DNA of 42,031 nt, taken from the NCBI GenBank assembly GCA_002633005.1, contig NMRA01000583.1, positions 221,988 through 264,018 of the forward strand, given 5' to 3'. The position numbers and the translations under genes are program-made. How positions within the stretch are numbered: position 1 is the stretch's first letter; every line of letters begins with the position of its first letter. A model generated the notes under the pieces. The model saw only the letters and a program-made list of their open reading frames with translations, did no database searches and was not told the DNA's origin. Origin of the DNA: Phoronis australis (Eukaryota > Animalia > Phoronida). Below, piece by piece: positions 2,299 through 41,299 of this stretch.

Positions 2299-2322
2299 CT
2301 CCCCCCTTACCAATTGTACCAG
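2299..2322 (+). CDS. 24-nt phase 1-1 micro-exon, Pro-rich (x-PPLPIVP), of the mucin-Sushi host gene
   Basis: Strong acceptor tttcacctttcttttcag and donor CAG|gtatgt. The length is a multiple of 3 and the phase-1 translation is Pro-rich like the other micro-exons. Confidence 0.6.
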
Positions 2323-4835
2323 GTATGTTGCTGGGCTGTCAATGAAGATTGTTGTTGGTTCCGACTTGTCAGTTCCAAATACTTGTAGTTAAGATTTGTG
2401 AGTATAATATACATTATATGTCTTGGGGAGGTCGTAAACAGAAAAGCTCGCCAATGGTCAATATTTAGGAGTCAATAATCGCGGGCAAATCCTCGCTTAG
2501 CGGTAGCGGGTAACGAGGCGTCAGTTGTTACGTGACCCGAAATCATTGTGCGTGGATTTTTTGTCATGCTCCCATTAACCATTAGAAATTGCATTCTCGG
2601 CTCACTCAATTTCCGGATTTTAGCTGTAGTGCGCATGCTCGAACGAACTTCTTTACCAATATTACCAACTTTGCAGCATTAACACCCTCTCCTCACCAGA
2701 ATTAAGATTTTGTCAGTGACAAAATGATGACGCATCAACACAAACTCTAGCTTCGTTTTTTCATTCGAAATTCCGGTCACAAAAAGGAAATTTTCCAATA
2801 TCCAGTAACCGAAAACGCTACCAAGCATTAGTCACCGCTCAAAACTGACCTTATCGAACGGTGTTTAAAGAAAATCAACGGCTTAAAGGAAATACTGTTA
2901 ATTTTATTACAGCTGCATCCTATTCAATAGGATGATTTTGAAAACCAAAGCTATCATTGTCGGGGCAACTCTAATCAGACGAAGAATTTAATTATTTTCA
3001 GTTAGATCGCTCCTTCACCAGTTCAGATGTGATCAGAAAATCGCCCACTTTAAAAATGGCCGTATTTTCACTATAAAACAACTTTAGCAACCATTTATCG
3101 GGCCTATGCTGTGTGTTTATGATCTATGGTGGCCTTGACTTCGCGTGTCGTGTAATTTGAGCTCAAAACCAAACGACCCGTGGAATATGTAAATACATGT
3201 ACTGTAGAAGACGGGACAGACTGGTACAATTTGAATAGTGTTTGTTTCTCACATGACCTGGAATGTGTTACGACACGTCTGATTAATAACAGCGAGTACG
3301 CAATGTTTTGATATTACAAGGGCGAATTAATTACAAAGTAGTGCAAAGTAGAAATCCATACGCTTTACATTTTATCATCTGCAAAACATTAATACCAACG
3401 ATCAAACGCGCCTACCAAACCATGCCAGAATTCCGTGATGACGGCTAGGTTATGATTGACAAATCTGGTTTCCCAACTGTACGTACTCCCAATCATGTAA
3501 ACAACTTCATAAACGGACCCATCTTCGGCGGCGAATTCCATATCTACGTTAATTCGAACGGAAACGAGCCCCAACTCAAGAAACGTGGTGAGACCAAGGA
3601 GTGTAGTACAATAGGAGAGTTCACTTGTGAGTTCGCTGTTATCGCTACTACTAACGCCACCAAGCGATGAGAAGCACCGGTCAAGTAGAAAGCGTGAGAA
3701 CAATGGGGAAGGGCGCATTTTGCATTGCGATAAATTGCAATAATTCATCCAGAAAAACCCCAGACATGTCAATGTTTACGTTTCCTAAGGATCCAGAAAT
3801 GTAATGATTATTTGTTATTCAATATTATGATAGACTGTCTTTTATTTTGTGTGTTCTGTTCATGGAATGTTGAGAGAACATCGCAATGGAATACAGTGTT
3901 GTGGTAGTGATGAATTGTCTTGCTTTGTTCTTCTTACTTGTGTTACACCTACTGCAAGAAGCCTTTGTCTGCACTGGTACCAGCCTGGCGTATTCAATAG
4001 AGAACACACTCAAATGTTTTGGATGGACATGAAACACGCAGTGAGCTGGGGGCACTTTATAATGAAAAGTTGGAAAACACCCGTGATGGTACTAGCGCAT
4101 GATGGCCACCAGTCATTACGGCCAAAAGTCTTTGGGCTCATGCTCAAAACAAGGGACAAATCTTATCACCACCTCAGCACAGTCATGTTGTCAATGGTCA
4201 GGGGAACAACCGAAATTTGTGACAATGGGAGGGACTCAACACTCATGTGGCATGCCCCATTGGTTTTTACTTGTTTACTACTCCTCCCCTGGGAGGGGGT
4301 CAACACCCATTTGGCGCTCAAATGGTTTCCGCTCCTTCACTTTACCCTTTTGCTGGCAACTCCCAGGAGCAACCATTAAAATTATGTAGTCCAAAGAGGT
4401 ATGAAATGCTATGAGGAACGGTAATTTGCCTTATTAAGAACTCAAGCATGGAACAAAACAATGATGGCTCTAAAGGGGCTTCAACAGAATTAAAGCAAAT
4501 ACACTTTTTTAATTGATTAAAACACACCTTTTCATTCTCATTCGATTATAATTGGATGTTTGTTTACGAATTTTACCCATTTCCAATCACACAGTAATTT
4601 TATTGCACGTCGAACGTCATTAAAGCACGAATTTACCAGTGATTACATGGTTCGGACTGCGTCAATAAATTAGTGTTGCTTATTACTCTGCGCGTGTAAG
4701 ACAACTTTGATTCTCAGCATTAAACACATTTTCCATGGGCTTTGCAATAATTCTCCTAAAGACGCTTATGATGCACCGCATAGGGCCAATTAGTGCAAAG
4801 GTCAGGTAACGTTCAAAATGTTATATCTCTTACGT

Positions 4836-5370
4836 TTTTCAAGGAATTCTTTTCAATTTCAGCACACTGGTGTAAGTCAACATGCCAATTGAATATCCTA
4901 CTTTACTTTGCAATAGGTCTAACCAATCAGAAAAAATAGGTTAAAGGTCATTGAGTGCAAACTAAAATTTTGAGCTAGAGACTTCAGAATTACATATCTG
5001 TTTACTAAGTGAGATTGAGTTTGAATTCTAAATGTTCAGGTCATTAGGTGCATTTTTCTTCTGAAAGTTTGGCCAACTCATTCATCTTGTATTCTGAAGT
5101 GCTTAAAGTAAAACATCTGTGATTATTAGCATTAACTACACTTTTAATCGAGTTAACAATTATTCCCTCACCGGGGCTCATAATGCACCGGAAGAGGTCA
5201 ATAAGTGGAAAGGTCATCAAAAAATTAATATGTAATTTCTCCTACAATTTTAAAGAATTCCTTTTCATATTGGTAAATGGGTTGCTGTCAGTAACTTCCC
5301 ATAATAATTCCAATAATACACACGCGCAGAGTCCATTATTGTCACACCGTGAAAATAATCTTTCTAGTTC
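4836..5370 (+). repeat. ~540-bp segment duplicated at 19311-19865
   Basis: Direct alignment from ttttcaaggaattcttttcaatttcagcacactggt to ctttctagtt. Both copies give the same spurious MHRKRSISG ORF (5183 and 19679). Confidence 0.9.
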
Positions 5371-6523
5371 GCCACTTGGAGCGCTAATTTTTCGACTGAT
5401 AACCATTGCGGCGAATACCAAGATGCCGGAGTGAACTCTCATATTCTTTGTAGACTCCTTGGAGAGACTATCAGGCTGTGCTATCTCAGTCAAGTTCAAT
5501 TCAGTGCTAACACCCGGGAAGACCTGCTGACCGTTTGTTTATAAATATTTGATAAGTTTAAATATTACAAATTCAAGGGCAATTTATTAGATTCTAACTT
5601 GAACGTTTCTTACGAAATCTGAATACTATTTACAATTGTTAAATTTAAAACAAAACTATTAACAAAAAGTAACTGAGTTTACTTAACATTGCGCAACGTG
5701 TTTTTACAAAGGTTTTAGACAAACGTCGAATTTTTTGGCAAAAAAGATCGTTTTTTTCGGTTCATGTGAGAAAACAAGCCTCTGTTGATCATGTCATAAA
5801 CCTGAGGCGAGTGTAGGATTACTGGTGTAAGATTATTTAACAGGTTTAAAACGTTTCTTGAGTGTTCGCTAGTTTAAAACTTGCGTGTTCACCTCGTCAA
5901 AATCGCCGATCCAAATCCTTGCAAAATGGCTACCATCAGCTGTTCGTCCCGCGTGGAACAATATTTTGCCGTGTGGTCGTGTAACCGACCACTCAACAAA
6001 CAACAACGGTGAGCAGGCGACGTGCTTGACGGGAGTTAATTCCGATGTCACACCAGGCGAATAGAAATGTTGCGCCTTGTGCGCAGGATCTCAGATTTGT
6101 GCATTTAGACTTACAATTGCCAGTCTTTTGGTAATTTGTGACCACCTGTCGAAGACTTGCACGAGAACGAAATAGCAATAATAAGGTTTTGCGCGACGAC
6201 GTATTTTGATAACAATCCGTCTTTTTAGCAGCTGTTTACATGCAGACAGCGACGCATGCGCAATTCAATCACCACTAGTAAAGCAGCGACACCGAGAGGA
6301 GAATTCTCCGAATATCCGCATTGCCAGTTCATACACATGTAGTAGGCTATGGCCTAAGCGAAGACCGAAAACTACCCTGCCGCAGTGTAGTCTTAAATTC
6401 AGGGTTTTGGTCTAAATGAAGACCACGACATCATCATTGTAAATCGTTGACGATATTTGTCATTGATATATTTCACGTTTCAGAATCTAGTGACCCTATG
6501 CAATTTGGAATTGAAATTTCCAG

Positions 6524-8285: not shown

Positions 8286-9112
8286 TCTAGCTTTCAATTC
8301 GAGAAGCGGCAAAAGCTCGAAGCGCTGATATTAATTGTGTGGCGGTCCCTAGACGGACCTTCGCGGATAGTTCTCGAGATATCATCGTGTGTTACACGAG
8401 AAGCACAGATTGAATTACTATAGCTTCCTTCGCGATATTCTTGTATCTACGGAACTAACCCAGCCGTGAAATCGTAGACTACCTCAGGATAACACACGAT
8501 CAAGCGAAGCAAGTGGTCACACTAGTTCGAGAGATTCTTGTATCTACGAAACTAGTCCTGGTTCCATCTCAAATAAACACGATCCCAATTGTAGTGATGT
8601 CTATGTTGAAAATCCCTGTCTATTGGACTTACAAGTCCAAAGTTATTCTGGCTTGAAACTGCGCTTCCCACATCGCCTGGGTACTGTTACATGTAGTTTG
8701 TGAATTCATAACAGCATGTTAACCTATGGCGAAAACCGACTAAATTTCGGTCTTCAGACCGATGACTGAAAACCTAGCTTGTGTTCATGAAACGGTCTTG
8801 TCTGGATTATCGTCGTCTTTCTTAGATTAGCCCGAATTTCGATGTTAACTTAAACACTTTCTGGAATTTAGCCTCTTAATGTCTCGAGTCATTTGTCATA
8901 AAACGGGCCCCAAATCAGCTCTGGCGAAAACTGACTTAATTTCGGTCTAAGTTGCGACCAAAAACCGAAAACCGAAGTTATGGTCATAAAACGCTTTTCC
9001 CGAATCTTTGTCTTCGGTCTTATGTGTAACTTAATTGAGCTTAAATTATGGTCTTTCAAGAGACCGAGTTCTATAGGGTCACGCAAAACTACTAAATTTA
9101 AAAGCCACGGAT

Positions 9113-10467: not shown

Positions 10468-10521
10468 GCTATGGACATCTGCGACCGCTTGCAAGCTCAG
10501 CACCAAACACGACACAATTAG
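10468..10521 (+). CDS. 54-nt phase 1-1 exon (x-YGHLRPLASSAPNTTQL) of the host gene
   Basis: ttttacgtttcaag|...TAG|gtacggcaacaac. It has the same length, phase and homologous intron flanks as the exon at 30258-30311. Confidence 0.6.
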   Translation, partial: AMDICDRLQAQHQTRHN

Positions 10522-11345: not shown

Positions 11346-12065
11346 CCCCAATACTACCGGTATTGTGTGTCAATCCTGAAAAATAAATAGCATGTACATC
11401 TAGTTTATAATCAGAGTAGCTGGAAACCGATTGTTCTGCGGTATTGCAAACAAATCCTTGACACAATTCCAAAACTCATTCTGCGTGCCACAAATCCTGT
11501 ATGCTCTATCTATCATGCTTCTGACCAGTCCAAATTTGTAGCTGTACATGTGTAAGCTGTAACGATGGAACCTTGGTCAACAAACCAGTGTAAGACTTTG
11601 TTTCTATAGACACTTGTTAACACCACCTCTTTTAACCTGGACAACCAGAAGTGGAATGGAAGACTGGCATTCATCCTCCATGTTGCAAATTAAGCTGACA
11701 TGACGACTATTCATCAATTGGCAAAAATGCTGCGCACAAGTCAACATCTTTGAGGGTGCATAATTATATGCCCCAGTAGAGAACAGTGTAGGTCGAAATG
11801 CTGTAAACATGTCAGCAATGTGAAGTTGTGTACTATTTGGCAATTAATTAAATGTTTGTCTGTGTTTCTGCTGGCTCAAATATTCCAGAAATTTAGAAAG
11901 TACAAGTAAATTGAAATGCTTTCAAAACATTTCTGTCTCTTCGCTTGAAAGGTTCTGTAGCAGTTTTGTTAAAACACCGCTGTATAATTGCAAGGTAAGT
12001 GAGTGTTTCGCAAGTCAAACTGCCGTTTTCCATTTACAATTTGTGCGCATGATTTTTATTTTCAG

Positions 12066-12095
12066 TGACACCCTCCCCACCGCGACCCAGGACAA
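12066..12095 (+). CDS. 30-nt micro-exon type A (x-TPSPPRPRT)
   Basis: tttttattttcag|TGACACCCTCCCCACCGCGACCCAGGACAA|gtaagt. Confidence 0.75.
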
Positions 12096-12637
12096 GTAAG
12101 TTCTTGTGCAATAAAACATTTAATCAAAGAGTATTTTGCACTTGATACGAATAGGAGCTATCCGTTGATCAATGCCAATTTGATGTTGAAACTGTTTTAG
12201 TTTATTGTTGATTAGTTATTGCGTTTAGAATAGTAATTTTTATTTACTCAAATAAAACTACCGGAATTATGATCAAAAGTCTCAACTGAGCAGGGATATT
12301 TGCCACGCCTCCTTCAATTGCACGTAGGCATTGGACACTAATTTGTGTCGGCAATAGCGGATCAGTCACTCTGCATTCACCAAAGCGTTGGTAAATTGGT
12401 GCATTTGCCTGCGCTCACGTGTTCTGTGTGTGCGCATAGGCTCGGAGTTGCGTAGTCTGTGAACCAAACTTGATTGAATCCAAACAGGTGGTAGTATATT
12501 GGCTGTGTACGGTTTAGTGTTACACAAATCAAACTCTCATTGAACCCCAAATATTGAGCTGCGCACGTCTGCATTACGATAGCAATTCAAACTGCCGTTT
12601 TCCATTCAGAAATAATGCGTATGGTTTTCATTTTCAG

Positions 12638-12667
12638 TGACACCCTCCCCACCGCGACCCAGTACAA
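12638..12667 (+). CDS. 30-nt (or 36-nt to 12673) micro-exon type A (x-TPSPPRPST[ST])
   Basis: ttttcattttcag|...AGTACAA|gtacat|gtaagt. Two donors 6 nt apart both preserve frame. Confidence 0.7.
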
Positions 12668-14206
12668 GTACATGTAAGTTCGTGCCCAAAAAACATTTTA
12701 ATAAAAGAATATTTTTGTACTTGATACGAATAGGAGCTATCCGTTTATCAATGCCGATTTGATGTTAAAATTATATTAGTTCATGGTTGATAAGTTATAG
12801 AGTTTAGAATCGTCAATTTAATTTACTCTAATATGATCAAAAATCTAATATGAGCGGGGATTTTTGCCATGCCTCCTCCAAGAACACGTAGGCATTGGAC
12901 ACTAATTTGTTTCGCCAACAGCGGATCAGTCATTCTGCATTCATCAATACTTTGGCAATTTGGTGCATTTGCCTGCGCTCACGTGTACTGTGTACGTGTA
13001 TATGCACCGACATGCGTAGTCTGTGAACCAAACTTGATTGAATCCAGAAAGGTGGTAGAATATTGGCAGTGTAGGGTTTACTGTTACACAAATAAAACTC
13101 TCATTGAACACCAAATATTGAGCTGCACACGTCTACATTACGATCGCAGAAAGAACTCCATCCGCAGAAATGAAAGGCGAATATAGCCTAAAAAATATTT
13201 AACCTTGTTTTGACGACATCGCACTGTCTATTCACCTTTTTGAACCTGGAAGTTCCCGAGTGTTGCTTCCTGAAGTTTAAGTTTCTTTTGTCACATAATG
13301 TTTTACTTCGCTTACATGTGTGTGACACACGGTCTGGTAGCATTGTTTGGAACTAACTTAGGTAAATAACACAACGTGTCACATTGACATAGGTAAAATA
13401 ACGTGAACGTGTTATAGATGTATACACAAAACGTACCGAGAGTGGCGTACATGTAGATGAACTAATATCCCACAAGACATCATTCCACGCATCGACCGAG
13501 ACCGAATCCCATATGCTTTGAATTCCTAATTAACTTTCCTTCAGTTTTTCGGCAGATTTTCTAAACACTTTCCTCAGACTGTTTACGTGGTGGATCGCTT
13601 CCTATATGTATGTACTTGCGGGTAAGGTTGGACGTTTTCTCTAGTAAAAGAAAAGATTTAACGATTTATTAATTAAAAAGAGATAACAAAGATTAAAAAA
13701 TGGTAACTTTACATTGAACTTGTAACATCTCCCGAAAAATTTAAATAACAACAGTGTTTGATATTGTATTTACCGAGGAATCTAGGAATGAGTTTCTGCC
13801 GATATAATATTAAGCAATTGAAAACTGAGACAAAACTGTTATACGGTCCTGTTCCAGATGATGCAATTGGGACCTGATTGCATGTCGATGTTAGTTATAC
13901 TGTTTCAACTGTATTACTTTAAACTATATTAGGAAAGTTTGATGATCGAACCGGCTAACGACGTCGAGTCGACATTGACCTCCTTTTTGAACTTACCATG
14001 TCAGAGGTCACTGTTGAACAAGTGCGGGAGGTGAATATAGAAAACAATAGTACATGGCCTTATTGCATTGACTGATTCAACGCGTATGGGGTAAATTTCG
14101 ATATCCACTGCGTAATTGTTTAAAACGAAATAATTTTCCGGAACACTATTCAATTTTATACTTCATTTTCACGATCATGTCAGTCACGCAGGAATTTCAT
14201 TTGCAG

Positions 14207-14236
14207 CTACACCCATTCTACAAAACTCAAGTACAA
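14207..14236 (+). CDS. 30-nt micro-exon type B (x-TPILQNSST)
   Basis: atttcatttgcag|CTACACCCATTCTACAAAACTCAAGTACAA|gtaaat. Confidence 0.7.
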
Positions 14237-14393
14237 GTAAATCGAAATGCTTCCAAAACATTTCTGACTCTCTGCTTAAAAGCTTCGTAGAAGTTTTTAA
14301 AACACCGCTGCATATTTGAAAGGTATGTGAGTGTTTCGCAAGTCAAACTGCCGTTTTCCATTTACAAATTGTGCGCATGGTTTTTATTTTCAG

Positions 14394-14423
14394 TGACACC
14401 CTCCCCACCGCGACCCAGGACAA
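14394..14423 (+). CDS. 30-nt micro-exon type A (x-TPSPPRPRT)
   Basis: Copy of 12066-12095 (+2328) with AG/GTAAGT intact. Confidence 0.72.
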
Positions 14424-14965
14424 GTAAGTTCTTGTGCAATAAAACATTTAATCAAAGAGTATTTTGCACTTGATACGAATAGGAGCTATCCGTTGATCAA
14501 TGCCAATTTGATGTTGAAACTGTTTTAGTTTATTGTTGATTAGTTATTGCGTTTAGAATAGTAATTTTTATTTACTCAAATAAAACTACCGGAATTATGA
14601 TCAAAAGTCTCAACTGAGCAGGGATATTTGCCACGCCTCCTTCAATTGCACGTAGGCATTGGACACTAATTTGTGTCGGCAATAGCGGATCAGTCACTCT
14701 GCATTCACCAAAGCGTTGGTAAATTGGTGCATTTGCCTGCGCTCACGTGTTCTGTGTGTGCGCATAGGCTCGGAGTTGCGTAGTCTGTGAACCAAACTTG
14801 ATTGAATCCAAACAGGTGGTAGTATATTGGCTGTGTACGGTTTAGTGTTACACAAATCAAACTCTCATTGAACCCCAAATATTGAGCTGCGCACGTCTGC
14901 ATTACGATAGCAATTCAAACTGCCGTTTTCCATTCAGAAATAATGCGTATGGTTTTCATTTTCAG

Positions 14966-14995
14966 TGACACCCTCCCCACCGCGACCCAGTACAA
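14966..14995 (+). CDS. 30/36-nt micro-exon type A (x-TPSPPRPST[ST])
   Basis: Copy of 12638-12667 (+2328). Confidence 0.68.
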
Positions 14996-16534
14996 GTACA
15001 TGTAAGTTCGTGCCCAAAAAACATTTTAATAAAAGAATATTTTTGTACTTGATACGAATAGGAGCTATCCGTTTATCAATGCCGATTTGATGTTAAAATT
15101 ATATTAGTTCATGGTTGATAAGTTATAGAGTTTAGAATCGTCAATTTAATTTACTCTAATATGATCAAAAATCTAATATGAGCGGGGATTTTTGCCATGC
15201 CTCCTCCAAGAACACGTAGGCATTGGACACTAATTTGTTTCGCCAACAGCGGATCAGTCATTCTGCATTCATCAATACTTTGGCAATTTGGTGCATTTGC
15301 CTGCGCTCACGTGTACTGTGTACGTGTATATGCACCGACATGCGTAGTCTGTGAACCAAACTTGATTGAATCCAGAAAGGTGGTAGAATATTGGCAGTGT
15401 AGGGTTTACTGTTACACAAATAAAACTCTCATTGAACACCAAATATTGAGCTGCACACGTCTACATTACGATCGCAGAAAGAACTCCATCCGCAGAAATG
15501 AAAGGCGAATATAGCCTAAAAAATATTTAACCTTGTTTTGACGACATCGCACTGTCTATTCACCTTTTTGAACCTGGAAGTTCCCGAGTGTTGCTTCCTG
15601 AAGTTTAAGTTTCTTTTGTCACATAATGTTTTACTTCGCTTACATGTGTGTGACACACGGTCTGGTAGCATTGTTTGGAACTAACTTAGGTAAATAACAC
15701 AACGTGTCACATTGACATAGGTAAAATAACGTGAACGTGTTATAGATGTATACACAAAACGTACCGAGAGTGGCGTACATGTAGATGAACTAATATCCCA
15801 CAAGACATCATTCCACGCATCGACCGAGACCGAATCCCATATGCTTTGAATTCCTAATTAACTTTCCTTCAGTTTTTCGGCAGATTTTCTAAACACTTTC
15901 CTCAGACTGTTTACGTGGTGGATCGCTTCCTATATGTATGTACTTGCGGGTAAGGTTGGACGTTTTCTCTAGTAAAAGAAAAGATTTAACGATTTATTAA
16001 TTAAAAAGAGATAACAAAGATTAAAAAATGGTAACTTTACATTGAACTTGTAACATCTCCCGAAAAATTTAAATAACAACAGTGTTTGATATTGTATTTA
16101 CCGAGGAATCTAGGAATGAGTTTCTGCCGATATAATATTAAGCAATTGAAAACTGAGACAAAACTGTTATACGGTCCTGTTCCAGATGATGCAATTGGGA
16201 CCTGATTGCATGTCGATGTTAGTTATACTGTTTCAACTGTATTACTTTAAACTATATTAGGAAAGTTTGATGATCGAACCGGCTAACGACGTCGAGTCGA
16301 CATTGACCTCCTTTTTGAACTTACCATGTCAGAGGTCACTGTTGAACAAGTGCGGGAGGTGAATATAGAAAACAATAGTACATGGCCTTATTGCATTGAC
16401 TGATTCAACGCGTATGGGGTAAATTTCGATATCCACTGCGTAATTGTTTAAAACGAAATAATTTTCCGGAACACTATTCAATTTTATACTTCATTTTCAC
16501 GTTCATGTCAGTCACGCAGGAATTTCATTTGCAG

Positions 16535-16564
16535 CTACACCCATTCTACAAAACTCAAGTACAA
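16535..16564 (+). CDS. 30-nt micro-exon type B (x-TPILQNSST)
   Basis: Copy of 14207-14236 (+2328). Confidence 0.68.
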
Positions 16565-16721
16565 GTAAATCGAAATGCTTCCAAAACATTTCTGACTCTC
16601 TGCTTAAAAGCTTCGTAGAAGTTTTTAAAACACCGCTGTATATTTGAAAGGTATGTTAGTGCTTCGCAATTCAAACTGCCGTTTTCCATTCAGAAATAAT
16701 GCGTATGGTTTTCATTTTCAG

Positions 16722-16751
16722 TGACACCCTCCCCACCGCGCCCCAGTACAA
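16722..16751 (+). CDS. 30-nt micro-exon type A (x-TPSPPRPST)
   Basis: ttttcag|...|gtaagt, with a synonymous CGA>CGC change. Confidence 0.75.
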
Positions 16752-18285
16752 GTAAGTTCGTGCCCAAAAACATTTTAATTAAAGAATATTTTTGTATTTG
16801 ATACGAATAGGAGCTATCCGTTTATCAATGCCAATTTGATGTTAAAAATATATTAGTTCATGGTTGATAAGTTATTGAGTTTAGAATCGTCATTTTTATT
16901 TACTCTATTATGATCAAAAGTCTAATATGAGCGGGGATATTTGCCCTGCCTCCTCCAATAACACGTAGGCATTGGACACTAATTTGTGTCGCCAACAGCG
17001 GATCAGTCATTCTGCATTCATCAATACTTTGGCAATTTGGTGCATTTGCCTGCGCTCACGTGTACTGTGTACGTGTATATGCACCGACATGCGTAGTCTG
17101 TGAACCAAACTTGATTGAATCCAGAAAGGTGGTAGAATATTGGCAGTGTAGGGTTTACTGTTACACAAATCAAACTCTCATTGAACACCAAATATTGAGC
17201 TGCACACGTCTACATTACGATCGCAGAAAGAACTCCATCCGCAGAAATGAAAGGCGACTATAGCGTAAAAAAATATTTAACCTTGTTTTGACGACATCGC
17301 ACTGTCTATTCACCTTTTTGAACCTGGAAGTTCCCGAGTGTTGCTTCCTGAAGTTTAAGTTTCTTTTGTCACATAATGTTTTACTTCGCTTACATTTGTG
17401 TGACACACTGTCTGGTAGCATTCTTTGGAACTAACTTAGGTAAATAACACAACGTGTCACATTGACATAGGTAAAATAACGTGAACGTTTTATAGATGTA
17501 TACACGAAACGTACCGAGAGTGGCGTACATGTAGATGAACTAATATCCCACAAGACATCAATCCACGCATCGACCGAGACCGAATCCCATATGCTTTGAA
17601 TTCCTAATTAACTTTCCTCCAGTTTTTCGGCAGATTTTCTAAACACTTCACTCAGACTGTTCCCGTGGTGGATCGCTTCCTATATGTATGTACTTGCGGG
17701 TAAGGTTGGAAGTTTTCTCTAGTAAAAGAAAAGATTTAACGATTTATTAATTAAAAAGAGATAACAAAGATTAAAAAACGGTAACTGTACATTGAACTTG
17801 TAACATCTCCCGAAAAATTTAAATAACAACAATGTTTGATATTGTATTTACCGAGGAATCTAGGAATGAGTTTCTGCCGATATAATATTAACCAATTGAA
17901 AACTGAGACAAAACTGTTATACGGTCCTGTTCCAGATGATGCAATTGGGACCTGATTGCATGTCGATGTTAGTTCTACTGTTTCAACTGTATTACTTTAA
18001 ACTATATTCGGAAAGTTTGATGATCGAACCGGCTAACGATGTCGAGTCGACATTGACCTCCTTTTTGAACTTTCCATGACAGATGTCACTGTTGAACAAG
18101 TGCGGGAGGTGAATATAGAAAACAATATTACATGGCCTTATTGCATTCGACTGATTCAACGCGTATGGGGTAAATTTCGATATCCAATCCGTAATTCTTT
18201 AAAATCAAATAATTGTCCGGAACACTATTTAATTTTGTACTTCATTTTCACGTTCTTGTCAGTCACGCAGGAATTTCATTTGCAG

Positions 18286-18315
18286 CTACACCCATTCTAC
18301 AAAACTCAAGTACAA
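18286..18315 (+). CDS. 30-nt micro-exon type B (x-TPILQNSST)
   Basis: tttgcag|...|gtaaat intact. Confidence 0.68.
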
Positions 18316-18473
18316 GTAAATTGAAATGCTTTCAAAGTACTTCTGACTCTCTGCTTGAAAGCTTCCGTAGAAGTTTTTAAAACACCGCTGTATATTTGAA
18401 AGGTATGTGAGTGCTTCGCAATTCAAACTGCAGTTTTCTATTCCGTAATAATGCGTATGGTTTTCATTTTCAG

Positions 18474-18503
18474 CTACACCCATCCCGCCGCGACCCAGTA
18501 CAA
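18474..18503 (+). CDS. 30-nt micro-exon type A/B intermediate (x-TPIPPRPST)
   Basis: ttttcag|CTACACCCATCCCGCCGCGACCCAGTACAA|gtaagt. The 5' third matches type B and the rest matches type A. Confidence 0.75.
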
Positions 18504-19310
18504 GTAAGTTCGTGCCCAAGTAAACATTTTAATTAAAGAATATTTTTGTACTTGATACGAATAAGAGCTATCCGTTTATCAATGCCGATTTGATGTTAAA
18601 TTCATATTAGTTCATGGTTGATAAATTATTGAGTTTAGAATCATCATTTTTATTCACTCTAATATGATCAAAAGTCTAATATGAGCGGGGATATTTGCCA
18701 TGCCTCCTCCAATTACACGTACATGTAGGCAGTGGACACTAATTTGTGTCGTCAACAGCGGATCAGTCATTCTGCATTCATCAATACTTTGGCAATTCGG
18801 TGCATTTGCCTGCGCTCACGTGTATTGTGTGCGTGTATATGAACCGACTTGCGTAGTCTGTGAACCAAACTTGATTGAATCCAGAAAGGTGGTAGAATAT
18901 TGGCAGTGTAGGGTTTACTGTTATACAAATCAAACTCTCATTGAACACCAAATATTGAGCTGCACACGTCTACATTACGATCGCAGAAAGAACTTCATCC
19001 GCAGAAATGAAAGGCGAATATAGCGTAAGAAATATTTAGCCTTGTTTTGACGATATCGCACTGTCTATTCACCTTTTTGAACCTCGAAGTTACCGAGTGT
19101 TGCTTCCTGAAGTTATACTTTCTTTTGTCGCATACTGTTTTACTTCGCTTACATCTGTGTGACACACTGTCTGGTAGCATTTTTTGGAACTAGCTCAGGT
19201 AAATAACACAACGTGTCACATTGACGTAGGTAAAATAGCGTGAACGTGTTATAGATGTATACACAAAACGTACCGAGAGTGGCGTAGATGAATTAATATC
19301 CCACGAAACA

Positions 19311-19865
19311 TTTTCAAGGAATTCTTTTCAATTTCAGCACACTGGTGTTATTCAAGATGCCAATTGAATACCCTACTTTACTTCGCAATAGGCCTAACCA
19401 ATCAGAAAAAATAGGTCAAAGGTCATTGAGTGCAAACTAAAATTTTGAGCTAGAGACTTCAAAATTACGTATCCGTTTACTAAGTGCGATTTAGTTAGAA
19501 TTCTAAATTTTCAGGTCATTTGGTGCACCCATGGGGTCATTAGGTGCATTTTTCTTCTGAAAATTTGACCACTTCATTCATCTTGTATTCTGAAGTACTT
19601 AAAGTAAAACATCTGTGATTATTAGCATTAACCACGCTTTTAATCGAGTTAACAATTACTCCCTCATCGGGGCTCATAATGCACCGGAAGAGGTCAATTA
19701 GTGGAAATTTCATCAAAAAATTTATATGTAATTTCTCCTACGATTTTAAAGAATTCCTTTTCATATTGGTAAGCGGGTTGTTGTCAGTAACTTCCCATAA
19801 TAATTCCAGTAATACGCACGCGCAGAGTCCTTTATTGTCACGCCGTGACAATAACCTTTCTAGTT
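19311..19865 (+). repeat. Copy of 4836-5370 replacing ~300 bp of one array monomer
   Basis: The monomer stops at aatatcccacgaaaca and resumes at gatattgtagttaccgagga. The intervening monomer sequence is absent. Confidence 0.88.
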
Positions 19866-20314
19866 GATATTGTAGTTACCGAGGATTCTACGCCTGAGTT
19901 GCTGACGATATAATATTAAGCAATTGAAAACTGGAGACAAAAGTGTTATACGGTCCCGTTCCAGATGATGCAATTGGGACCTGATTGCATGTCGATGTTA
20001 GTTACACTGTTTCAACTGTATTACTTTAAACTATAATCGGAAAGTTTGATGATCGAACCGGCTAACGACGTCGAGTCGACATTGACCTCCTTTTTGAACT
20101 TTCCATGTCAGAGGTCACTGTTGAACAAGTGCGGGAAGTGAATATAGAAACCAATATTACATGGCCGCATTGCATTCGACTGATTCAACGCGTACGGGGT
20201 AAATTTCGATATCCACTGCGTAATTGTTTAAAATCAAATAATTGTCTGGAACACTATTTAATTTTATACTTCATTTTAACGCTCATTTCAGTCCCGCAGG
20301 AATTTCATTTGCAG

Positions 20315-20344
20315 CTTCACCCATTCTACAAAACTCAAGTACAA
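20315..20344 (+). CDS. 30-nt micro-exon type B (x-SPILQNSST)
   Basis: tttgcag|CTTCACCCATT...ACAA|gtaaat. Confidence 0.68.
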
Positions 20345-20502
20345 GTAAATCGAAATGCTTCCAAAACATTTCTGACCCTCTGCTTGAAGGCTTCGGTAGA
20401 AGTTTTTAAAACACCGCTGTATATTTGAAAGGTATGTGAGTGCTTTGCAATTCAAACTGCCATCTATCATTTTGAAATAATGCCCATGGTTTTCATTTTC
20501 AG

Positions 20503-20532
20503 CTGTACCCATCCCGCCGCGACCCAGTACAA
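20503..20532 (+). CDS. 30-nt micro-exon type A (x-VPIPPRPST)
   Basis: ttttcag|CTGTACCCATCCCGCCGCGACCCAGTACAA|gtaagt. Confidence 0.73.
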
Positions 20533-20841
20533 GTAAGTTCATGTCCAAGTAAACATTTTAATCAAAGAATATTTTTGTACTTGATACGAATAGGAGCTAT
20601 CCGTTTATCAATGCCAATTTGATGTTAAGTTATTTGAGTTAGTGGTTGATAAGTTATTGGGTTTAGAATGGTCATTTTTATTTACTCTAATATGAACAAA
20701 GTCTAATATGAGCGGGAATATTTGCCACGCCTCCTCCAATTACACGTAGGCATTGGACACTAATTTGTGTTGCCAACAGCGGATCAGGCACCCTGCATTC
20801 ATCAATACTTGGTGCATTTGCCTGCGCTCACGTGTACTGTG

Positions 20842-21881
20842 CCCCTTCCATCCATTACACAGTCAAGTGAATACTGCACTTGACAGGTGTGTGAACCCCG
20901 TCCCTGCAACAGAAACTTATGGACTTCGTCCTAGACCTTTTCGCAATGCCTCCCACCAAAGACTTAGCAGGTGCTCGTGGACTGTCGCTGCTGTTAACGC
21001 AACCATGGGTCTCATCGGCGAGCACATGATCGCGCAAGATGCTGCTTGGCTGCCAGTACAAGAACTTGGTGAGGAACCGAATGTCATCATTGCTTTCAAC
21101 AGGGAAGCGCGGGAATGGCCTCCTGGAGTAGCCCAAGCATTGTGCCGTCAGCAATGGCGTGATCTTGGCGGTATTAATGCCATCATGGTAGCAACTGATG
21201 GATCTTTCGATGGTGAAACTAATCGTGCGGGATGGGGTTATCAAATACGCTGTGCTAACAACGTCATTGCGGAAGGTCGTGGCTGCCACCATGTATACAC
21301 AAGCAGTGCGCGGATGGAGTTTGAGGCTATACAACGTGCCCTAACCAAGCTGTCACTCCTAGACCTGGAGAATCACACCATTATCTTTGCCACCGATTCC
21401 ATGGCAGTGTTGATGAAAGTTCAATCTAGAAACCCCCCAGCCAACTGGGGTGTCTTCCGATCACGCCACCCTCATCATGTAGTGATCTGGTCTTTCGTAC
21501 CTGGCCACGCCGGTGTCTCGATAAATGAGCGTGCAGATTACAGTGTACCTCGCTGGCTCATGCACCACCAACCATCCCCTCTACTTATATTCGGCTGACG
21601 TTAAGCTGCTGGCCCGCAAACGCAACCTCGAGCAGACTGCATCCCACCTGGCTGAGTTCAATGATGGCAGCCGCCTGCTCGAAGCCGGTATTATTTATGG
21701 CCATACTGCGAAGAGTCACAAGAAGAGCCGTGCCCGAGTGCTGTCTAATCAAATGCTTACAGGCAACGTCAGCCCTGGATTTCTGCGCCTTCTGCTGTCA
21801 CGGGGAAGGTCTGGGGAGGGGATTAATGCACCAGCAAATCCCCAATGATCCTGTCCGTGACAGGTATTACAGGTATTACAG
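20842..21881 (+). mobile_element. 5'-truncated non-LTR retrotransposon 3' end carrying RNase H (I-group/Ingi-like)
   Basis: RNase HI motifs ATDGS..AGWG, SSARMEFEAI, ATDSM and FVPGHAGVSINERAD, with a frameshift near 21541. The 3' tail is (ACAGGTATT)x2.5. It is a clean insertion into the monomer sequence actgtg^tgcgtg with a possible GTG duplication. The clade is inferred. Confidence 0.85.
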
Positions 21882-23086
21882 GTGTGCGTGTATATGCACC
21901 GACTTTCGTAGTCTGTGAACCAAACTTGATTGAATCCAGAAAGGTGGTAGTATATTGGCAGTGTAGGGTTTAGCGTTACACAAATCAAACTCTCATTGAA
22001 CACCAAATATTGAGCTGCACACGTCTACATTACGATCGCCGAAACAAATTCATCTGCAGAAATGAAAGGCGAATATAACGTATTTTAAAAGAACACGAAA
22101 TCCTGTTTTGACGATTTCGCACTGTCTGTTCACCTTTTTCAAGCTGGAAGTTCCCGAGTATTACTTCCTGAGGTTTATCTTTCTTTTGTCACATACAGTA
22201 CTGTTTTACTTCGCCTACTTCTGTATGACACACTGTCTGATAGCATTCTCTAGAACTCGCTCTGGTAAATATCACTGCGTGTCATGTTGACGTAGGTAAA
22301 ATAACGTGAACGTGTTATAGATGTGAACACAACCGAGAGTGGCGTAGATGAAGTAATATCCCACTAAACATTATTCCGCGTATCGACCGTGGTCGAATCC
22401 CATACGCTTTGAATTCCTAAGCTTCTTTCATTTTTTCGGCAGATTTTTTAAATACTTCACTCAGACTGTTCACGTGGCGGATCACGTACTTTATGTATGT
22501 ACTTGCTTGTTAGGGTGGAAGTTTTAACTAGTAAAAGAAAAAAAGCTCGAAATGTAACTATTTATTACTTGAAAAGAGATACATGTATCAAAGATGAAAA
22601 CAACTGTAACTGTACTTTGAAGTTGTAACATCTGAGAATATTTCAATAACAACAATATTTGATACTCTAGTTACCGAGGAATCGCCGCCTAAGTTGCAGA
22701 CGCTATAATATTTAACAATTGAAAACTGAGACAGAACTGTCATATAATTAACAGTCCTGTTCCAGATGTTACGGTTTGGTACATGAATGCATGTTGAGTG
22801 TTATTTACACTGCTGCAATTGTATTACTTTAAACTATTTTCGGAAAGTTGATGATCTCACCGGCTAACGAAGTCGAGTCCACATTCATTTACCTTTCGTA
22901 CTTTCCATGCCAGAGGTCACTGTTGAAGTAGTGCGGGAGGTGAATACGGAAGACGTTATTACATTGACGTATTTCCTTCGTCAGGTTCAACGCTTTTGAT
23001 ATCCAATGTGTAATTGTTAAAAAATCAAATAATTGTTCGGAAACTACCTTATTTTCATGTCAGTCACGCAGGACTTTCTTTTTCAG

Positions 23087-23116
23087 CTACGCCTATTCTA
23101 CCAAGCTCAAGTAAAA
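23087..23116 (+). CDS. 30-nt micro-exon type B (x-TPILPSSSK)
   Basis: ctttctttttcag|CTACGCCTATTCTACCAAGCTCAAGTAAAA|gtaagt, with synonymous ACA>ACG and CCC>CCT changes in a diverged monomer. Confidence 0.72.
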
Positions 23117-23276
23117 GTAAGTTGAAATGCTTTCAAAACATTTCTGTCTCTCTGTTTGAAAGCTTCTGTAGTAGGTTTTCAAAACACCGCTGTATCTTTG
23201 CAAGGCGTGTGAGTGTTTTGCAATTCAAACTACCGTTTTCCCTTTCAAAAATCATGCCCATGGTTTTCATTTTCAG

Positions 23277-23306
23277 TTACACCCTCCCCGCCGCGGCCCA
23301 GTAAAA
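23277..23306 (+). CDS. Type A micro-exon with mutated donor (pseudo-exon, or 24-nt exon ending at 23300)
   Basis: The acceptor is intact but the donor is ttaagc. An in-frame cryptic gtaaaa lies at 23301. Confidence 0.45.
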
Positions 23307-24916
23307 TTAAGCTCATGTGCAATTAAACATTTTAATCGAAGTATATTTTGCACTTGATACAAATAGGGACTACCTGTTTATCAGTGCCAATTTGATGTTG
23401 AAACTGTTGTTGTTGACAAGTTATTAAGTTTAGAATGGTCAATTTCATTTACTCTTATGAAGCTATCGGTATTAGGATCAAAAGTCTTAAATGAGCGGGG
23501 ACATTTGCAACGCCTCCTCCAATTATGCAGTACGTACATGTACGCATTGAACACTAATTTGTGTCGGCAATAGGGGATCTGTCAATCTGCATTCATCAAA
23601 ACATTGCGCTCCTGTGTACTTTGTCTGTGTATATGCTCGGACTTGCGTAGTTTGTGAACCAAACTTGATTGAATCCAAACAAGTTGCTGTATATTGGCAG
23701 TGTAATTGTTAGTGTAAGTTACATAAATCAAACTCGTATTGAACACCAAATATTGAGCCACACGTCTACATTACGACCACAGAAACAAATTAATCTGCAG
23801 AAATGAAAGGAGAATATAACGTAAAAGAATAGTAAACCCTGTTTTGACGATTTCAACCAATCCTCGTTCTGGCAACTGCTAATTCATCATTGGTTTCAAT
23901 CATTAGGTTAAATGCATAATCCTTGGTGGTATTTTCCCACAGCTGTCCAGTAATTAGCTAAACGTATAAGTCACACTTGCACATTTAGCAGTATTTGAAA
24001 GGGAGTTTTCAAAATTTCCTCCAAACTTTTGAGGGTTGACGAAGGTTACAGAGCGCTATTTTGTTTCAGTGAACTGGATGGAAAAGTCGTTTTTAGTATC
24101 TGTTAATAGGACAAAACCAGGTTTGGCATCCTTTAAACGGAAGTCATTCAAAAGTATTTATCTATTCCAACATTAAACTTTTAGTGTTCGCTTGAAGCTC
24201 CGCTATTTGCATTTTCATCCAGCGGTGAACCCGTATAGAACATGCCTGCAATTCTTCGTTGGTTTGCATTCGGCGTCATTTTGTCAAAATCTTTGAGTAC
24301 ATCGTAGCATTTAATGCTAGCCCACTTCTCCAATTTTCGTCTTTAGCGCAACAGCAGTAACCTGTTGACTTGTTGCCTTGCAATTCCTCCCTTATCCTCA
24401 TTTGCTTTTAAATGCGAAACTTTGAAAAAACCTTGGTGCTAATCACGTGTTACTTTAGACATCGACACCTGGTGGTATGATAAGGTTTTCTGTGCAGAAG
24501 GTTGCATAAGGGAATATTTTTGAGTTCCGGAGAAAAGACCTTTTTACAGTGTATGAATAAATATGATGCGCATATTAGTTCCTCGTCATCTAGAGACCAC
24601 CAGAATCTGGTTCTAAATGATCAGTGTCCAATATTTGAGCCTGGTTTATTGAAATATCTCCCCAGTATTGATTCTCAAGTGTTAGTTTTCTTTTGTCACA
24701 TACTACTTTAATTCGCTTACATCTTTGTGTCGCAATGTCTGATAGCATTCCATGTAACTCGCTAGGTAAATATCACAGCGTGTCACGTCGCCATAGCAAC
24801 AACAGCGTCTCCAATGTGGAATTGTTTAAAATCAATTTATTGATCTAAAGTAACTTTAATTAATTTTATACTTCATTTTCACGCACATGTCAGTCACGCA
24901 GGAATTTCATTTCCAG

Positions 24917-24952
24917 CTACCACTGCACCCATTCGACCGGGCCCAGATAAAA
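24917..24952 (+). CDS. 36-nt micro-exon (x-TTAPIRPGPDK)
   Basis: atttcatttccag|...|gtaagt in the most decayed monomer. It differs from type B by an in-frame 6-nt gain. Confidence 0.7.
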
Positions 24953-27140: not shown

Positions 27141-27158
27141 TTCCAACGCCACGTGGGA
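27141..27158 (+). CDS. 18-nt phase 1-1 micro-exon candidate (x-PTPRG)
   Basis: cttattccattgcag|TTCCAACGCCACGTGGGA|gtaagt. Confidence 0.5.
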
Positions 27159-30257: not shown

Positions 30258-30311
30258 GCCTTGGGGGAATAGTGAAGCCACCATCGACATTACCAATACC
30301 AATACAAAAAG
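30258..30311 (+). CDS. 54-nt phase 1-1 exon (x-LGGIVKPPSTLPIPIQK)
   Basis: tattttgtttacag|...AAG|gtacagcaacaac. Paralogous in length and flanks to 10468-10521. Confidence 0.62.
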
Positions 30312-30841: not shown

Positions 30842-30859
30842 GCCCTCCGAAAGTACCAA
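30842..30859 (+). CDS. 18-nt phase 1-1 micro-exon (x-PPKVP)
   Basis: ctttcatttcaactacag|GCCCTCCGAAAGTACCAA|gtaagt. The flanks resemble those of array micro-exons. Confidence 0.58.
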
Positions 30860-30982: not shown

Positions 30983-31084
30983 GTAAGTAATGTATAAAGT
31001 ATACTGACCTAGTTAATTTCTAAAATGAGTGAATGCGTGGTCTTCATCTACCGTCAGATGTATAAAACAATCTGAGATCTACAG

Positions 31085-33271: not shown

Positions 33272-33341
33272 AACAGTGCGTGGTACCAGAAAATGCTCCA
33301 CGAAACGTCGAATTATCCTGCACGGAAACACAAGATTCCAT
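33272..33341 (+). CDS. Sushi/CCP-like domain 1, first half (x-QCVVPENAPRNVELSCTETQDS-I)
   Basis: attaattttag|70 nt|gtaagt, phase 1 to 2. Joins in frame to 35307. Confidence 0.85.
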
Positions 33342-35306: not shown

Positions 35307-35434
35307 ACGATGCGCTGCATCATGCACCTTGGATGACCCTACTTTCTTGTTTCCCAACTTGCAAAAGATGTTGGTGACGGAATGCAGATTTGATGAAGGA
35401 ACATGGAGTAGTAAGCCGGATTCCGAGTGTACTG
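35307..35434 (+). CDS. Sushi/CCP-like domain 1, second half (RCAASCTLDDPTFLFPNLQKMLVTECRFDEGTWSSKPDSECT)
   Basis: tattttttcag|128 nt|gtaatg, phase 2 to 1. Shows the C-x3-C ... C-x4-G-x-W-S ... C pattern. Confidence 0.85.
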
Positions 35435-37081: not shown

Positions 37082-37181
37082 TACAAACAAACACACATAC
37101 ATGTATATGGATACACACAGTCGCAAATATCTACCCACACACACACACACACACAAACAAACACACACGCACGCGCACACA
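37082..37181. repeat. Imperfect (CA)n microsatellite
   Basis: CA/CAAA/CG runs seen directly. Confidence 0.8.
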
Positions 37182-37761
37182 TTCACGCTCATTTACTCAT
37201 AAATGCATGTACGTATACTTAAATGCATGTAGCATACAAAGTCATGCATACAGGAAATTTTTCCTTAAGTGCTGCTGCGTACTTAAGAGTCGCTTTCCGC
37301 TTCATTTCAGTTAAAAACTTTCATAAAAGGGTTCTTAACGCAAGTTAGTTCAGTTGAATCTTAGGTCCAAACAATGCGCATTCGATTTTTAAGTTAAGTT
37401 AATCTTTTTGTTTTTACTGGTGCATCATCAACTGAAATGGCAGCCGTAGTGAGTAACAGGTGACTTAAGCATCATGGGTACTCGCTCAGCAGCCACCATA
37501 CGTAATGAGGTTTCGTGGAAACACCGCAAACTTTTTCAAAGTAAAATAATTAGGCAAACAAAAAGAAAGCTGAAAGTTACGAAATGCAAATACGTCTTGA
37601 CTGACAAAACTCCTCCTGTGTTCCAAACTGATAATTGTAAAGGAAAGATTTGTTTTAACTTATTACTAGACTAACGTAATATAAAAGAACAAGCACATTT
37701 GTTCTAAGTTTGACTTGCAATAAGTTTATTCGTTATATTTTGCTAATTGTTTCTGTTTCAG

Positions 37762-37840
37762 AAAAGTGCAAAAAGCCATTTACTGCGTTACATGGAGTTG
37801 ACAGGGTTGATTGCGAGCATTCAATAACCGAAGACTACCG
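37762..37840 (+). CDS. Sushi/CCP-like domain 2, first half (E-KCKKPFTALHGVDRVDCEHSITEDY-R)
   Basis: ttgtttctgtttcag|79 nt|gtatgt, phase 1 to 2. Confidence 0.85.
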
Positions 37841-40064: not shown

Positions 40065-40370
40065 ACCAGGGCTGAGTTGCATAAAGCTTCAACAGTTATC
40101 CGCTGGATGAGTTTGATTGTTGCAAGACGTCAGGTGCATTGTTCAACAGTAACAACGTGACGCGACGTCATTGTTGCTATACGGCGTATAATTTTTATGC
40201 AACTGTGTTATTCTGAGCCCAGTTTTATAGAAGTTATACGCCGTATAGAAACAATGACGTTGCATTATCACGCGTCACTTTGTTATTATTGAACAATGCA
40301 CCCGACGTCACGCAACAATAAAACTCATCCAGCGGATAACTTTTGAAGCTTTATGCAACTCAGCCCTGGT
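40065..40370. mobile_element. ~305-bp foldback MITE (PIF/Harbinger-like terminus)
   Basis: ACCAGGGCTGAGTTGCATAAAGCTTCAA... is inverted at the right end. The arms pair for about 135 bp, almost to the centre. Confidence 0.85.
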
Positions 40371-40443
40371 TTGTAGTGCGTTTACACTGTGATTGGATAA
40401 ACAATCAATAGCCGGCGTGCGTACAGTTGACGATAGGACCTAC

Positions 40444-40549
40444 GCTAGGACCTAGCTAAAATCGAGTCAAGGTCACGTGTTCTCATTTAAAATACACCGC
40501 AATATCTCATATAATCTCGCGAAGTCTTGCATTTTAGCGAGGTCCTAGC
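40444..40549. mobile_element. ~105-bp mini inverted-repeat element
   Basis: GCTAGGACCTAGCTAAAAT and ATTTTAGCGAGGTCCTAGC match at 18 of 19 positions as an inverted repeat. Confidence 0.55.
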
Positions 40550-40623
40550 ATTACCTCATTAGTCACGTGCTAGAGTGCCGAAACACAACCATATACATGT
40601 ATATAGAACGATTTATATTCCAG

Positions 40624-40751
40624 ATCTTGCACCGCGAGCTGTAACAAAGGCTTTGTATTCATGAATGGTGAAGCCAAGGGGAAGGAAAAGTTCAGGATCA
40701 CGTGCAGGTTTAGCTCAGGCATATGGAGCGGCAAATTCAGCGAGTGCAGAG
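40624..40751 (+). CDS. Sushi/CCP-like domain 2, second half (SCTASCNKGFVFMNGEAKGKEKFRITCRFSSGIWSGKFSECR)
   Basis: tttatattccag|128 nt|gtacat, phase 2 to 1. Shows the C-x3-C-x2-GF ... TC-x4-G-x-WSG-x4-C Sushi signature and has the same length as 35307-35434. Confidence 0.88.
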
Positions 40752-40876
40752 GTACATGTAAATGTATTAAACTGAAAACGTACAACAATTGTGATAATAT
40801 CATAATAGGTTGCCTTTATGACATAGAATTGCAAGTACAAGTAGCAGACCCATACAACTTTACCAAATATTTTGAA

Positions 40877-41137
40877 AACACTGATGGTCACAGAATCGTA
40901 TGTGTACATGTCTAACACTGATGGTCACAGAATCGTATGTGTACATGTCTAACACTGATGGTCACAGAATCATATGTGTACATGTCTAACACTGATGGTC
41001 ACAGAATCGTATGTGTACATGTCTAACACTGATGGTCACAGAATCGTATGTGTACATGTCTAACACTGATGGTCACAGAATCGTATGTGTACATGTCTAA
41101 CACTGATGGTCACAGAATCGTATGTGTACATGTCTAA
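40877..41137. repeat. 37-bp minisatellite x7 (AACACTGATGGTCACAGAATCGTATGTGTACATGTCT)
   Basis: Units start at 40877, 40914, 40951, 40988, 41025, 41062 and 41099. Unit 3 has one G>A change. There are no spacers. Confidence 0.97.
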
Positions 41138-41165
41138 TAATGTGTCATTGCATCACACGTTTCAG

Positions 41166-41299
41166 AAAGTGTGGACTCCGGTTCAGGGGTACCAGCAGAA
41201 TTGCATGAAGCGAAACAGTACGATCAAAATGCGTCAGCCCAGCTCACTCACAACGCACACGGTGTAATTGCCTTGACCTTGATCCTAGCTCTGTATTGA
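41166..41299 (+). CDS. Terminal coding exon with GPI-signal-like C-terminus (E-SVDSGSGVPAELHEAKQYDQNASAQLTHNAHGVIALTLILALY*)
   Basis: cacgtttcag| entered in phase 1, matching the previous exon. Small residues NAS/A, a polar spacer and a ~12-residue hydrophobic tail precede TGA at 41297-41299. Confidence 0.72.

Follow-up and report, generated by a model that had tools for sequence, protein, structure and literature searches.

Closest described systems

Surface proteins that combine Sushi, or complement control protein (CCP), modules with a serine-, threonine- and proline-rich (S/T/P) segment include CD55, in which the CCP modules come first, the S/T/P segment follows and the anchor is glycosylphosphatidylinositol (GPI). 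Here, we describe a gene of the phoronid Phoronis australis that has similar parts in another order, located in a window of 42,031 nucleotides (the whole stretch analysed, to which all coordinates refer; NCBI GenBank assembly GCA_002633005.1, contig NMRA01000583.1, positions 221,988–264,018, forward strand). Its exons in the window encode a proline/threonine/serine-rich (P/T/S) stretch, two cysteine modules of probable CCP type and a GPI-type tail. The parts are known; their order and the record of exon birth and death kept by the locus are unusual. In MUC1/MUC4 and CD68, a P/T/S region likewise lies N-terminal to compact domains beside the anchor, but its repeats sit mostly in one large exon and the domains are SEA, VWD, EGF or LAMP, whereas here every repeat is a separate exon and the domains resemble CCPs.

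CD55 and CD46 share with this gene CCP modules, an S/T/P segment made from short exons (STP-A, STP-B and STP-C of CD46, 14–15 amino acids; PMC12043084) and a membrane anchor, here a predicted one. They differ in that the P/T/S stretch here is N-terminal, the small exons number 14 rather than three, no STP-type alternative splicing was seen, and the modules, two instead of four and with six cysteines each, lie C-terminal to that stretch; the layout of the regulators of complement activation (four N-terminal CCPs, then STP) is thus absent. The CCPs of selectins, SRPX and SVEP1 (cluster D) have the same ~60–65 residues, six cysteines and conserved tryptophan, and their membrane-proximal place fits a rigid stalk (PMC4710209, PMC2151080). 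Compared to these proteins, our locus lacks lectin, EGF and HYR domains within the window as well as a predicted membrane span and cytoplasmic tail, carries a mucin-like stretch above the modules and yielded no homologue in half-module sequence searches.

Two further systems resemble the exon structure. Schistosome micro-exon genes (MEG-4.1, 14, 29 and 32) have symmetric exons of at most 36 nt, a T/S/P-rich, predicted O-glycosylated region and restricted expression, and their membrane-anchored members have been proposed as a protective coat (PMC4671649). All 14 small exons here are likewise symmetric (phase 1-1) and T/S/P-rich; however, the gene is not mostly micro-exonic (348 of 995 nt), two folded modules are predicted to follow, introns were copied with their exons, and no splice variation was seen at the readable joints of the two expressing runs. 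The fester protein of Botryllus is also an invertebrate surface protein with a Sushi domain beside short in-frame exons (PMC11507803), but it has one Sushi domain, the short exons come after it, it has three membrane spans, and its polymorphism and splicing have been shown; none of these features was found here. A literature search, with most subscription journals outside it, found no description of a protein in which a P/T/S region precedes a pair of six-cysteine CCPs and a GPI-type tail.

A spliced gene with small symmetric exons

The window is animal genomic DNA (GC content ~39%, GT-AG introns, transposon remnants), and the locus is a genuine spliced gene. Within the window, 19 exons between 2299 and 41299 carry 995 nt of coding sequence across 39 kb, a coding density of 2.6% (Table 1). 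An AG acceptor precedes all 19 exons and a GT donor follows all 18 non-terminal exons; the spliced chain has one open frame with a single, terminal stop, whereas the two alternative frames are interrupted by 15 and 14 stops. The first 14 exons measure 18–54 nt, 12 exons being at most 36 nt long, and the last five run in phases 1-2, 2-1, 1-2, 2-1 and finally phase 1 with the stop, so that the phase-consistent chain proposed in the first-pass annotation held. A scan of the window for in-frame small-exon look-alikes returned 30 on the plus strand and 10 on the minus strand, or 18 and 3, respectively, when at least 40% P/T/S was required (alternative ends counted separately in both cases).

Four RNA runs with the same species label (X1–X4) were aligned on 23900–40870, and two of them (X1/X2) on the 5' side, 1835–12580; paired counts below are reads in X1/X2. 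In all joint reads of these two runs, the first mate maps to the minus strand, which corresponds to plus-strand RNA in a usual stranded library. The three joints named beforehand as tests of the gene model, 33341-35307 (293/241 reads), 37840-40624 (377/323) and 40751-41166 (220/273 loose ends at 40751 that carry the first letters of exon 41166), are each made by RNA in two of the four runs, and the two modules are connected by joint 35434-37762 (327/232). Exon 30311 is joined to 33272 in 201/206 reads, 197/206 of which carry the letters of the 18-nt exon 30842-30859 in between. On the 5' side, joints 2322-10468 (258/233) and 10521-12066 (205/265) revealed a 54-nt exon, 10468-10521, that was absent from the earlier model, and loose ends upstream of 24917 correspond to exon 23087-23116 (278/178), bypassing 23277 with an agreement of 1/0.99. 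The chain 24952-27141-30258, which has no direct joint reads, is backed by strand-specific depth and four variant reads; the links 18503-20503 and 20532-23087 are presumed, as is the 3' end of the gene. A single read never covers the entire chain, but short reads overlap along it and link the micro-exons with the cysteine modules, showing that these belong to one gene and not to separate transcripts.

Expression reaches ~200 reads per kilobase per million (a crude estimate) in X1 and X2, whereas X3 has no joint reads among 11.0 million records and the X4 contigs likewise lack joints, although both runs cover the intron repeats. Expression is therefore high in some samples and absent from view in another, i.e., sample-restricted; the blank in X3 could also reflect a strongly diverged allele (<90% alike). 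A minor joint, 40368-40624 (4/7 reads, compared to 377/323 for the main one), was rejected as an isoform and regarded as splicing noise, given the few reads and a donor that sits in a hairpin element (40065-40370, with 100-nt arms that are 92% complementary).

At the 5' end, 244/215 reads continue upstream of exon 2299 into a single sequence (agreement 1) found nowhere in the window. Its 30 letters are in frame and stop-free and encode a basic run, K-Q-R-R-R-K. Thus, at least one further in-frame coding exon lies upstream of 2299 outside the window, in agreement with the earlier proposal that the start codon is beyond the window. Because of this exon, the P/T/S region may be a stalk beneath an unseen N-terminal head rather than the distal region first proposed.

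Tandem copying and silencing of micro-exons

In the central part of the gene, exon-plus-intron units are arrayed in tandem, with two exon types, A and B, in alternation. The youngest pair of units, 12066-14173 and 14394-16501, is identical over 2108 bases, and the near-identical copies between 12066 and 16751 are indistinguishable with short reads. All seven intact B copies have a GTAAGT donor, and the eighth (23277) has lost its GT and is bypassed. Two copies of the A type, 23087 and 24917, carry the GTAAGT donor and are included in transcripts, whereas the copies at 14207, 16535, 18286 and 20315 are in frame, each with an N-S-S sequon, and have GTAAAT donors. After the 36-nt B exon, 254/243 reads have only three letters before the next B exon; this exon thus runs straight to the next B exon, and 14207 and 16535 are skipped. 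The reads indicate that 18286 is skipped as well, and no splice form including an A copy was found among the 12 of 39 rows listed.

The locus therefore records both the origin and the silencing of symmetric exons, with one dominant path in the two expressing runs. Silencing occurred by donor decay: the donor is strong in the used A exon and weak in its four sister copies, and the GT was lost in one B copy. Since all small exons are phase 1-1, the frame stays intact whether a copy is added or is silenced through donor decay. Exons were also lengthened in place, since a six-base insertion at 12668-12673 and 14996-15001 creates TACATGTA, a motif common in this genome, and adds six in-frame bases to two B exons, which thus grew from 30 to 36 nt; the longer form is the one used by the reads. 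This motif, which is linked with marine invertebrate genomes, occurs 21 times in the window (~1.2 expected). Exon divergence was also set against intron divergence for the B copies, with a mixed outcome on these 30-nt exons from which we draw no conclusion on selection. The first-pass annotation had called the region length-variable, which is shown for its genomic history of tandem exon-intron copying; in both expressing runs, one dominant splice path was found at the readable joints.

An element at 10720-11856 with 40-nt inverted ends adjoins the first tandem unit on its 5' side, and the A-type exon of this unit survives only as a 3' end near 11898. A fossil exon near 10690, split by this element, was considered and rejected as unproven, given that 6 of 300 random stretches score equally high. 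Another tandem unit contains a G+C-rich insertion of ~1 kb (20842-21881, plus strand) with an RNase H open reading frame (ORF; PF00075, E 1.7e-10).

Predicted protein

The 14 small exons encode 152 residues with 61% P/T/S (32% proline, 17% threonine and 12% serine) and no cysteine. The stretch is basic, with 17 lysine or arginine residues against one acidic residue, and includes seven P-P-R-P motifs. It also contains six x-T-P-x-P motifs, a pattern described as a consensus for mucin-type O-glycosylation (PMC4123919), which suggests that it may be O-glycosylated.

The two modules that follow have six cysteines each and a first-to-last-cysteine span of 63 and 66 residues, with spacings of 13-8-3-19-14 in module 1 and 14-10-3-20-13 in module 2 and a G-x-W located 8 and 7 residues, respectively, before the last cysteine. 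They are homologous to each other (27 identities in 74 columns; none of 5000 shuffles scored as high), and each is split by a phase-2 intron, as the first-pass annotation had described for two CCP-like modules. Both show the Sushi/CCP pattern in length, conserved cysteines and a tryptophan before the last cysteine. The usual CCP has ~60 residues, four conserved cysteines and this tryptophan (PMC9083331, PMC4710209), whereas six-cysteine CCPs form the selectin/SRPX group, in which an extra central disulfide results in a rigid stalk (PMC4710209, PMC2151080). The modules are probably six-cysteine CCPs, each of which would form three disulfides, judging from the cysteine pattern, the phase of the introns and three matches that are weak and partly dependent.

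Queries to Pfam, PDB and the Atlas and for folding were single exons, i.e., half-modules, and the three matches all come from the second half of module 2. It matched the Pfam Sushi profile (PF00084, positions 25-56 of 56, E 0.0023) with 18.7 bits, below the cut-off of 20.7. Its PDB sequence matches were CD55 chains in 13 of 14 cases (best E 0.03, range 0.03–1; redundant chains of one protein), and its best Atlas matches were Sushi clusters (0.89, a lead only). The other three half-module exons had no match in these single-exon scans. One half-module was predicted to fold into a three-strand sheet (predicted local distance difference test score 82) with no Foldseek match below E 0.001, and the other half scored 53. 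A two-sequence profile returned only chance matches in PDB.

The last exon encodes a short polar linker, an N-A-S triplet 23–21 residues from the end, a spacer of nine residues and a hydrophobic end of 11 residues that reaches the stop. At best, hydropathy averages 2.81 over 11 residues and 1.27 over 19, and, as judged from these values, the tail is too short for a membrane span; the single span and cytoplasmic tail of selectins are accordingly absent, the hydrophobic residues ending at the stop. GPI signals have a four-part layout (PMC5054108). By inspection, the small-residue site, spacer and hydrophobic end of such a signal are present in order, which agrees with the GPI-like tail of the first-pass annotation and suggests that GPI transfer would take place near the N-A-S triplet.

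Function and alternative explanations

We favor, with moderate confidence, a GPI-anchored and O-glycosylated surface protein in which the CCP pair would serve as a rigid base, with the P/T/S stretch extended above it as a mucin-like stalk or coat; a cell-surface glycoprotein, as first proposed, is still the best reading of a product with these three parts. The protein would enter the endoplasmic reticulum, gain its GPI anchor and O-glycans, and stand on the outer membrane of one cell type, possibly with an extra N-terminal part or after cleavage at the basic run. Its role may be physical (spacing, lubrication, or presentation of the unseen N-terminal part), and stalk length would shift in evolution via unequal copying of whole exon-intron cassettes. 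Several observations weigh against this interpretation. The stretch is unusually basic and proline-rich, with only 45 serines and threonines in 152 residues, a composition less usual for dense mucins and compatible with other roles; the hydrophobic end has only 11 residues; and the 30 letters upstream of exon 2299 read as basic rather than as a hydrophobic signal peptide. The Pfam match is sub-threshold and confined to one of four half-module exons, the second half of module 1 had no usable Atlas or PDB match, and no homologue from the half-module searches supplies a functional context. In these searches, which used queries of 42 residues and are weak, a two-exon alignment against longer proteins gave five candidates, none at E ≤ 10, and a single exon compared to proteins of similar length gave none. 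Three HMMER matches among 1.84 billion representatives were rejected as repetitive proteins without Sushi domains. The best reading is that the protein is lineage-specific.

The basic composition is shared ground with a different explanation, a secreted or processed matrix or defence protein whose tail would not be a GPI signal, or which would be cut at the basic run, and whose proline/arginine repeats would bind polyanions or microbes. The P-R-P motifs may resemble those of proline-rich antimicrobial peptides. The excess of basic residues and the P-P-R-P motifs in the linker, the K-Q-R-R-R-K run directly upstream of exon 2299, the short hydrophobic tail, and the listing of Sushi and mucin-like proteins in echinoderm skeletal matrices (PMC5460417) all fit such a protein. 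We nevertheless consider it unlikely, because the tail has all three GPI signal parts in order and ends at the stop, and because the six T-P-x-P motifs favor O-glycosylation; moreover, the basic run is unlike the furin cleavage pattern, R-x-K/R-R. A role in allorecognition, immunity or gamete recognition, with diversity supplied jointly by alleles, the number of exon copies and alternative micro-exons, appears rather improbable. Symmetric exons would permit frame-safe skipping, the 2.1-kb identical duplication is very recent, four intact in-frame A cassettes with weak donors are available, expression is on or off between runs (with the caveat on X3 given above), and fester and the schistosome micro-exon genes offer parallels, the former with a Sushi domain and alternatively spliced short exons (PMC11507803). 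However, both expressing runs show one dominant path, exon 23277 is consistently skipped, no A-including form is among the rows listed, and fester has three membrane spans where this protein has none. No allelic hypervariability was seen in the reads, with none of the 40 best-supported of 733 differences in the CCP exons, which is a weak argument because the runs may come from the sequenced individual.

A complement regulator that would shield cells from the animal's own C3-like proteins is highly improbable. It would have the same parts as CD55 (CCP, S/T/P and GPI), which also gave the best PDB sequence matches, but those matches are weak, concern half a module and come from redundant chains, there are only two modules with six cysteines each, and the S/T/P region is on the wrong side compared to CD46, where four CCPs precede the STP segment and CCP2-4 are active (PMC12043084). 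The CD55 likeness noted earlier thus stands for the kinds of parts and remains an analogy, given the selectin/SRPX-type modules and a domain order unlike CD46/CD55. A separate question is whether the youngest duplication (12066-14393 and 14394-16721) arose as an error of assembly, in which case the true number of micro-exons would be lower by two; the identity of the copies over their first 2108 bases would allow this. We regard this as quite improbable, since the ratio of joint reads of the 30-nt to the 36-nt type is 1.74/1.64 (two units predict 1.59–2.0, one unit 1.0) and that of the 36-nt type to the next is 1.24/1.09 (one unit predicts ≤1.0), although this simple model of read counting has two calibrating joints only.

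With the anchored stalk protein as the favored interpretation, the locus displays in one place how a mucin-like stalk grows and shrinks, with cassettes copied and copies silenced by donor decay. Annotation pipelines would probably overlook such a gene, given 12 exons of at most 36 nt, the low coding density and the lack of a homologue. Invertebrates commonly have surface glycoproteins that are lineage-specific and carry shuffled Sushi domains, so that the locus is of use more than a surprise unless its copy number or splicing turns out to vary. A micro-exon 'accordion' outside schistosomes, with copy-number variation between individuals and the four weak-donor cassettes, each with an N-glycan site, switched on in other tissues or states, is a speculative extension that we hold to be doubtful. 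If true, the animal would adjust how tall a GPI-anchored CCP protein stands and what sugar coat it bears, and the locus would encode a surface recognition molecule of new design, coded by splicing and copy number.

Table 1 Exons, look-alike copies and tandem array of the P. australis gene (window coordinates; paired values are X1/X2)
Feature	Position	Strand	Details
Micro-exon 1	2299..2322	+	24 nt, phase 1-1; upstream loose ends 244/215; joint to 10468 258/233
Small exon 2	10468..10521	+	54 nt, phase 1-1; N-T-T sequon; joints 258/233, 205/265
Tandem array of exon-plus-intron units	11898..23850	+	Units ~1.75–2.3 kb holding B- and A-type micro-exons; self-BLAST 75–96% identity
B-type micro-exon	12066..12095	+	30 nt; joint from 10521 205/265
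B-type micro-exon	12638..12673	+	36 nt, 6 bases longer than 30-nt copies; 254/243 reads with three extra letters, in common with copy 14966
A-type look-alike, skipped	14207..14236	+	In frame; weak GTAAAT donor; N-S-S sequon
B-type micro-exon	14394..14423	+	30 nt, same sequence as 12066; joint-read ratio consistent with two units
B-type micro-exon	14966..15001	+	36 nt, identical to 12638
A-type look-alike, skipped	16535..16564	+	Weak donor
B-type micro-exon	16722..16751	+	30 nt; X2 loose-end consensus behind 36-nt exon is the 16722 copy (85 reads)
A-type look-alike, skipped	18286..18315	+	Weak donor; X1 loose-end consensus from B exon to 18474 type (94 reads, agreement 0.88)
B-type micro-exon	18474..18503	+	30 nt, diverged; loose ends
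A-type look-alike	20315..20344	+	Weak donor
B-type micro-exon	20503..20532	+	30 nt; presumably included, from intact splice sites
A-type micro-exon, used	23087..23116	+	Strong GTAAGT donor; 278/178 loose ends upstream of 24917, agreement 1/0.99
Dead B-type copy, skipped	23277..23306	+	Donor GT lost
Micro-exon	24917..24952	+	36 nt; flanks homologous to A type
Micro-exon	27141..27158	+	18 nt; depth 11.4/8.2 in 566-nt bin, one strand only, 0 in X3
Small exon	30258..30311	+	54 nt; joint 201/206
Micro-exon	30842..30859	+	18 nt; letters between 30311 and 33272; joint to 33272 28/37
Cysteine module 1, first half	33272..33341	+	Phase 1-2; joint 293/241
Cysteine module 1, second half	35307..35434	+	Phase 2-1; joints 293/241, 327/232
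Cysteine module 2, first half	37762..37840	+	Phase 1-2; joints 327/232, 377/323
Cysteine module 2, second half	40624..40751	+	Phase 2-1; weak Pfam Sushi match
Terminal coding exon	41166..41299	+	Phase 1; short linker, GPI-type signal and stop; loose ends 220/273; hydropathy

Other elements and repeats

Several other elements were identified in the window. The intron after exon 2299 contains a remnant of a long terminal repeat (LTR) retrotransposon (6736-8290, plus strand), which we take to be Pao/BEL-like; its ORF (6947-7990) has a zinc-knuckle match and homologues with DUF1759, the best match being 61% identical and the best named match, from Saccoglossus, 38%. On the minus strand, two ORF fragments at 31886-32761 resemble, by eye, the end of a non-LTR retrotransposon and had no Pfam match. 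An element at 33497-34433 has long imperfect inverted ends (pairs of 55, 35 and 23 nt), and its read depth on both strands implies that it is transcribed elsewhere in the genome. A 555-bp dispersed repeat is present in two copies (4836-5369 and 19311-19865, 89.6% alike), and seven near-perfect copies of a 37-bp unit with a TACATGT motif (40877-41137) end ~28 nt before the last acceptor. Microsatellites of TGC (27259-27340), TG (1753-1831) and CA (37136-37181) lie in introns or upstream, and a single N is located at 1741.

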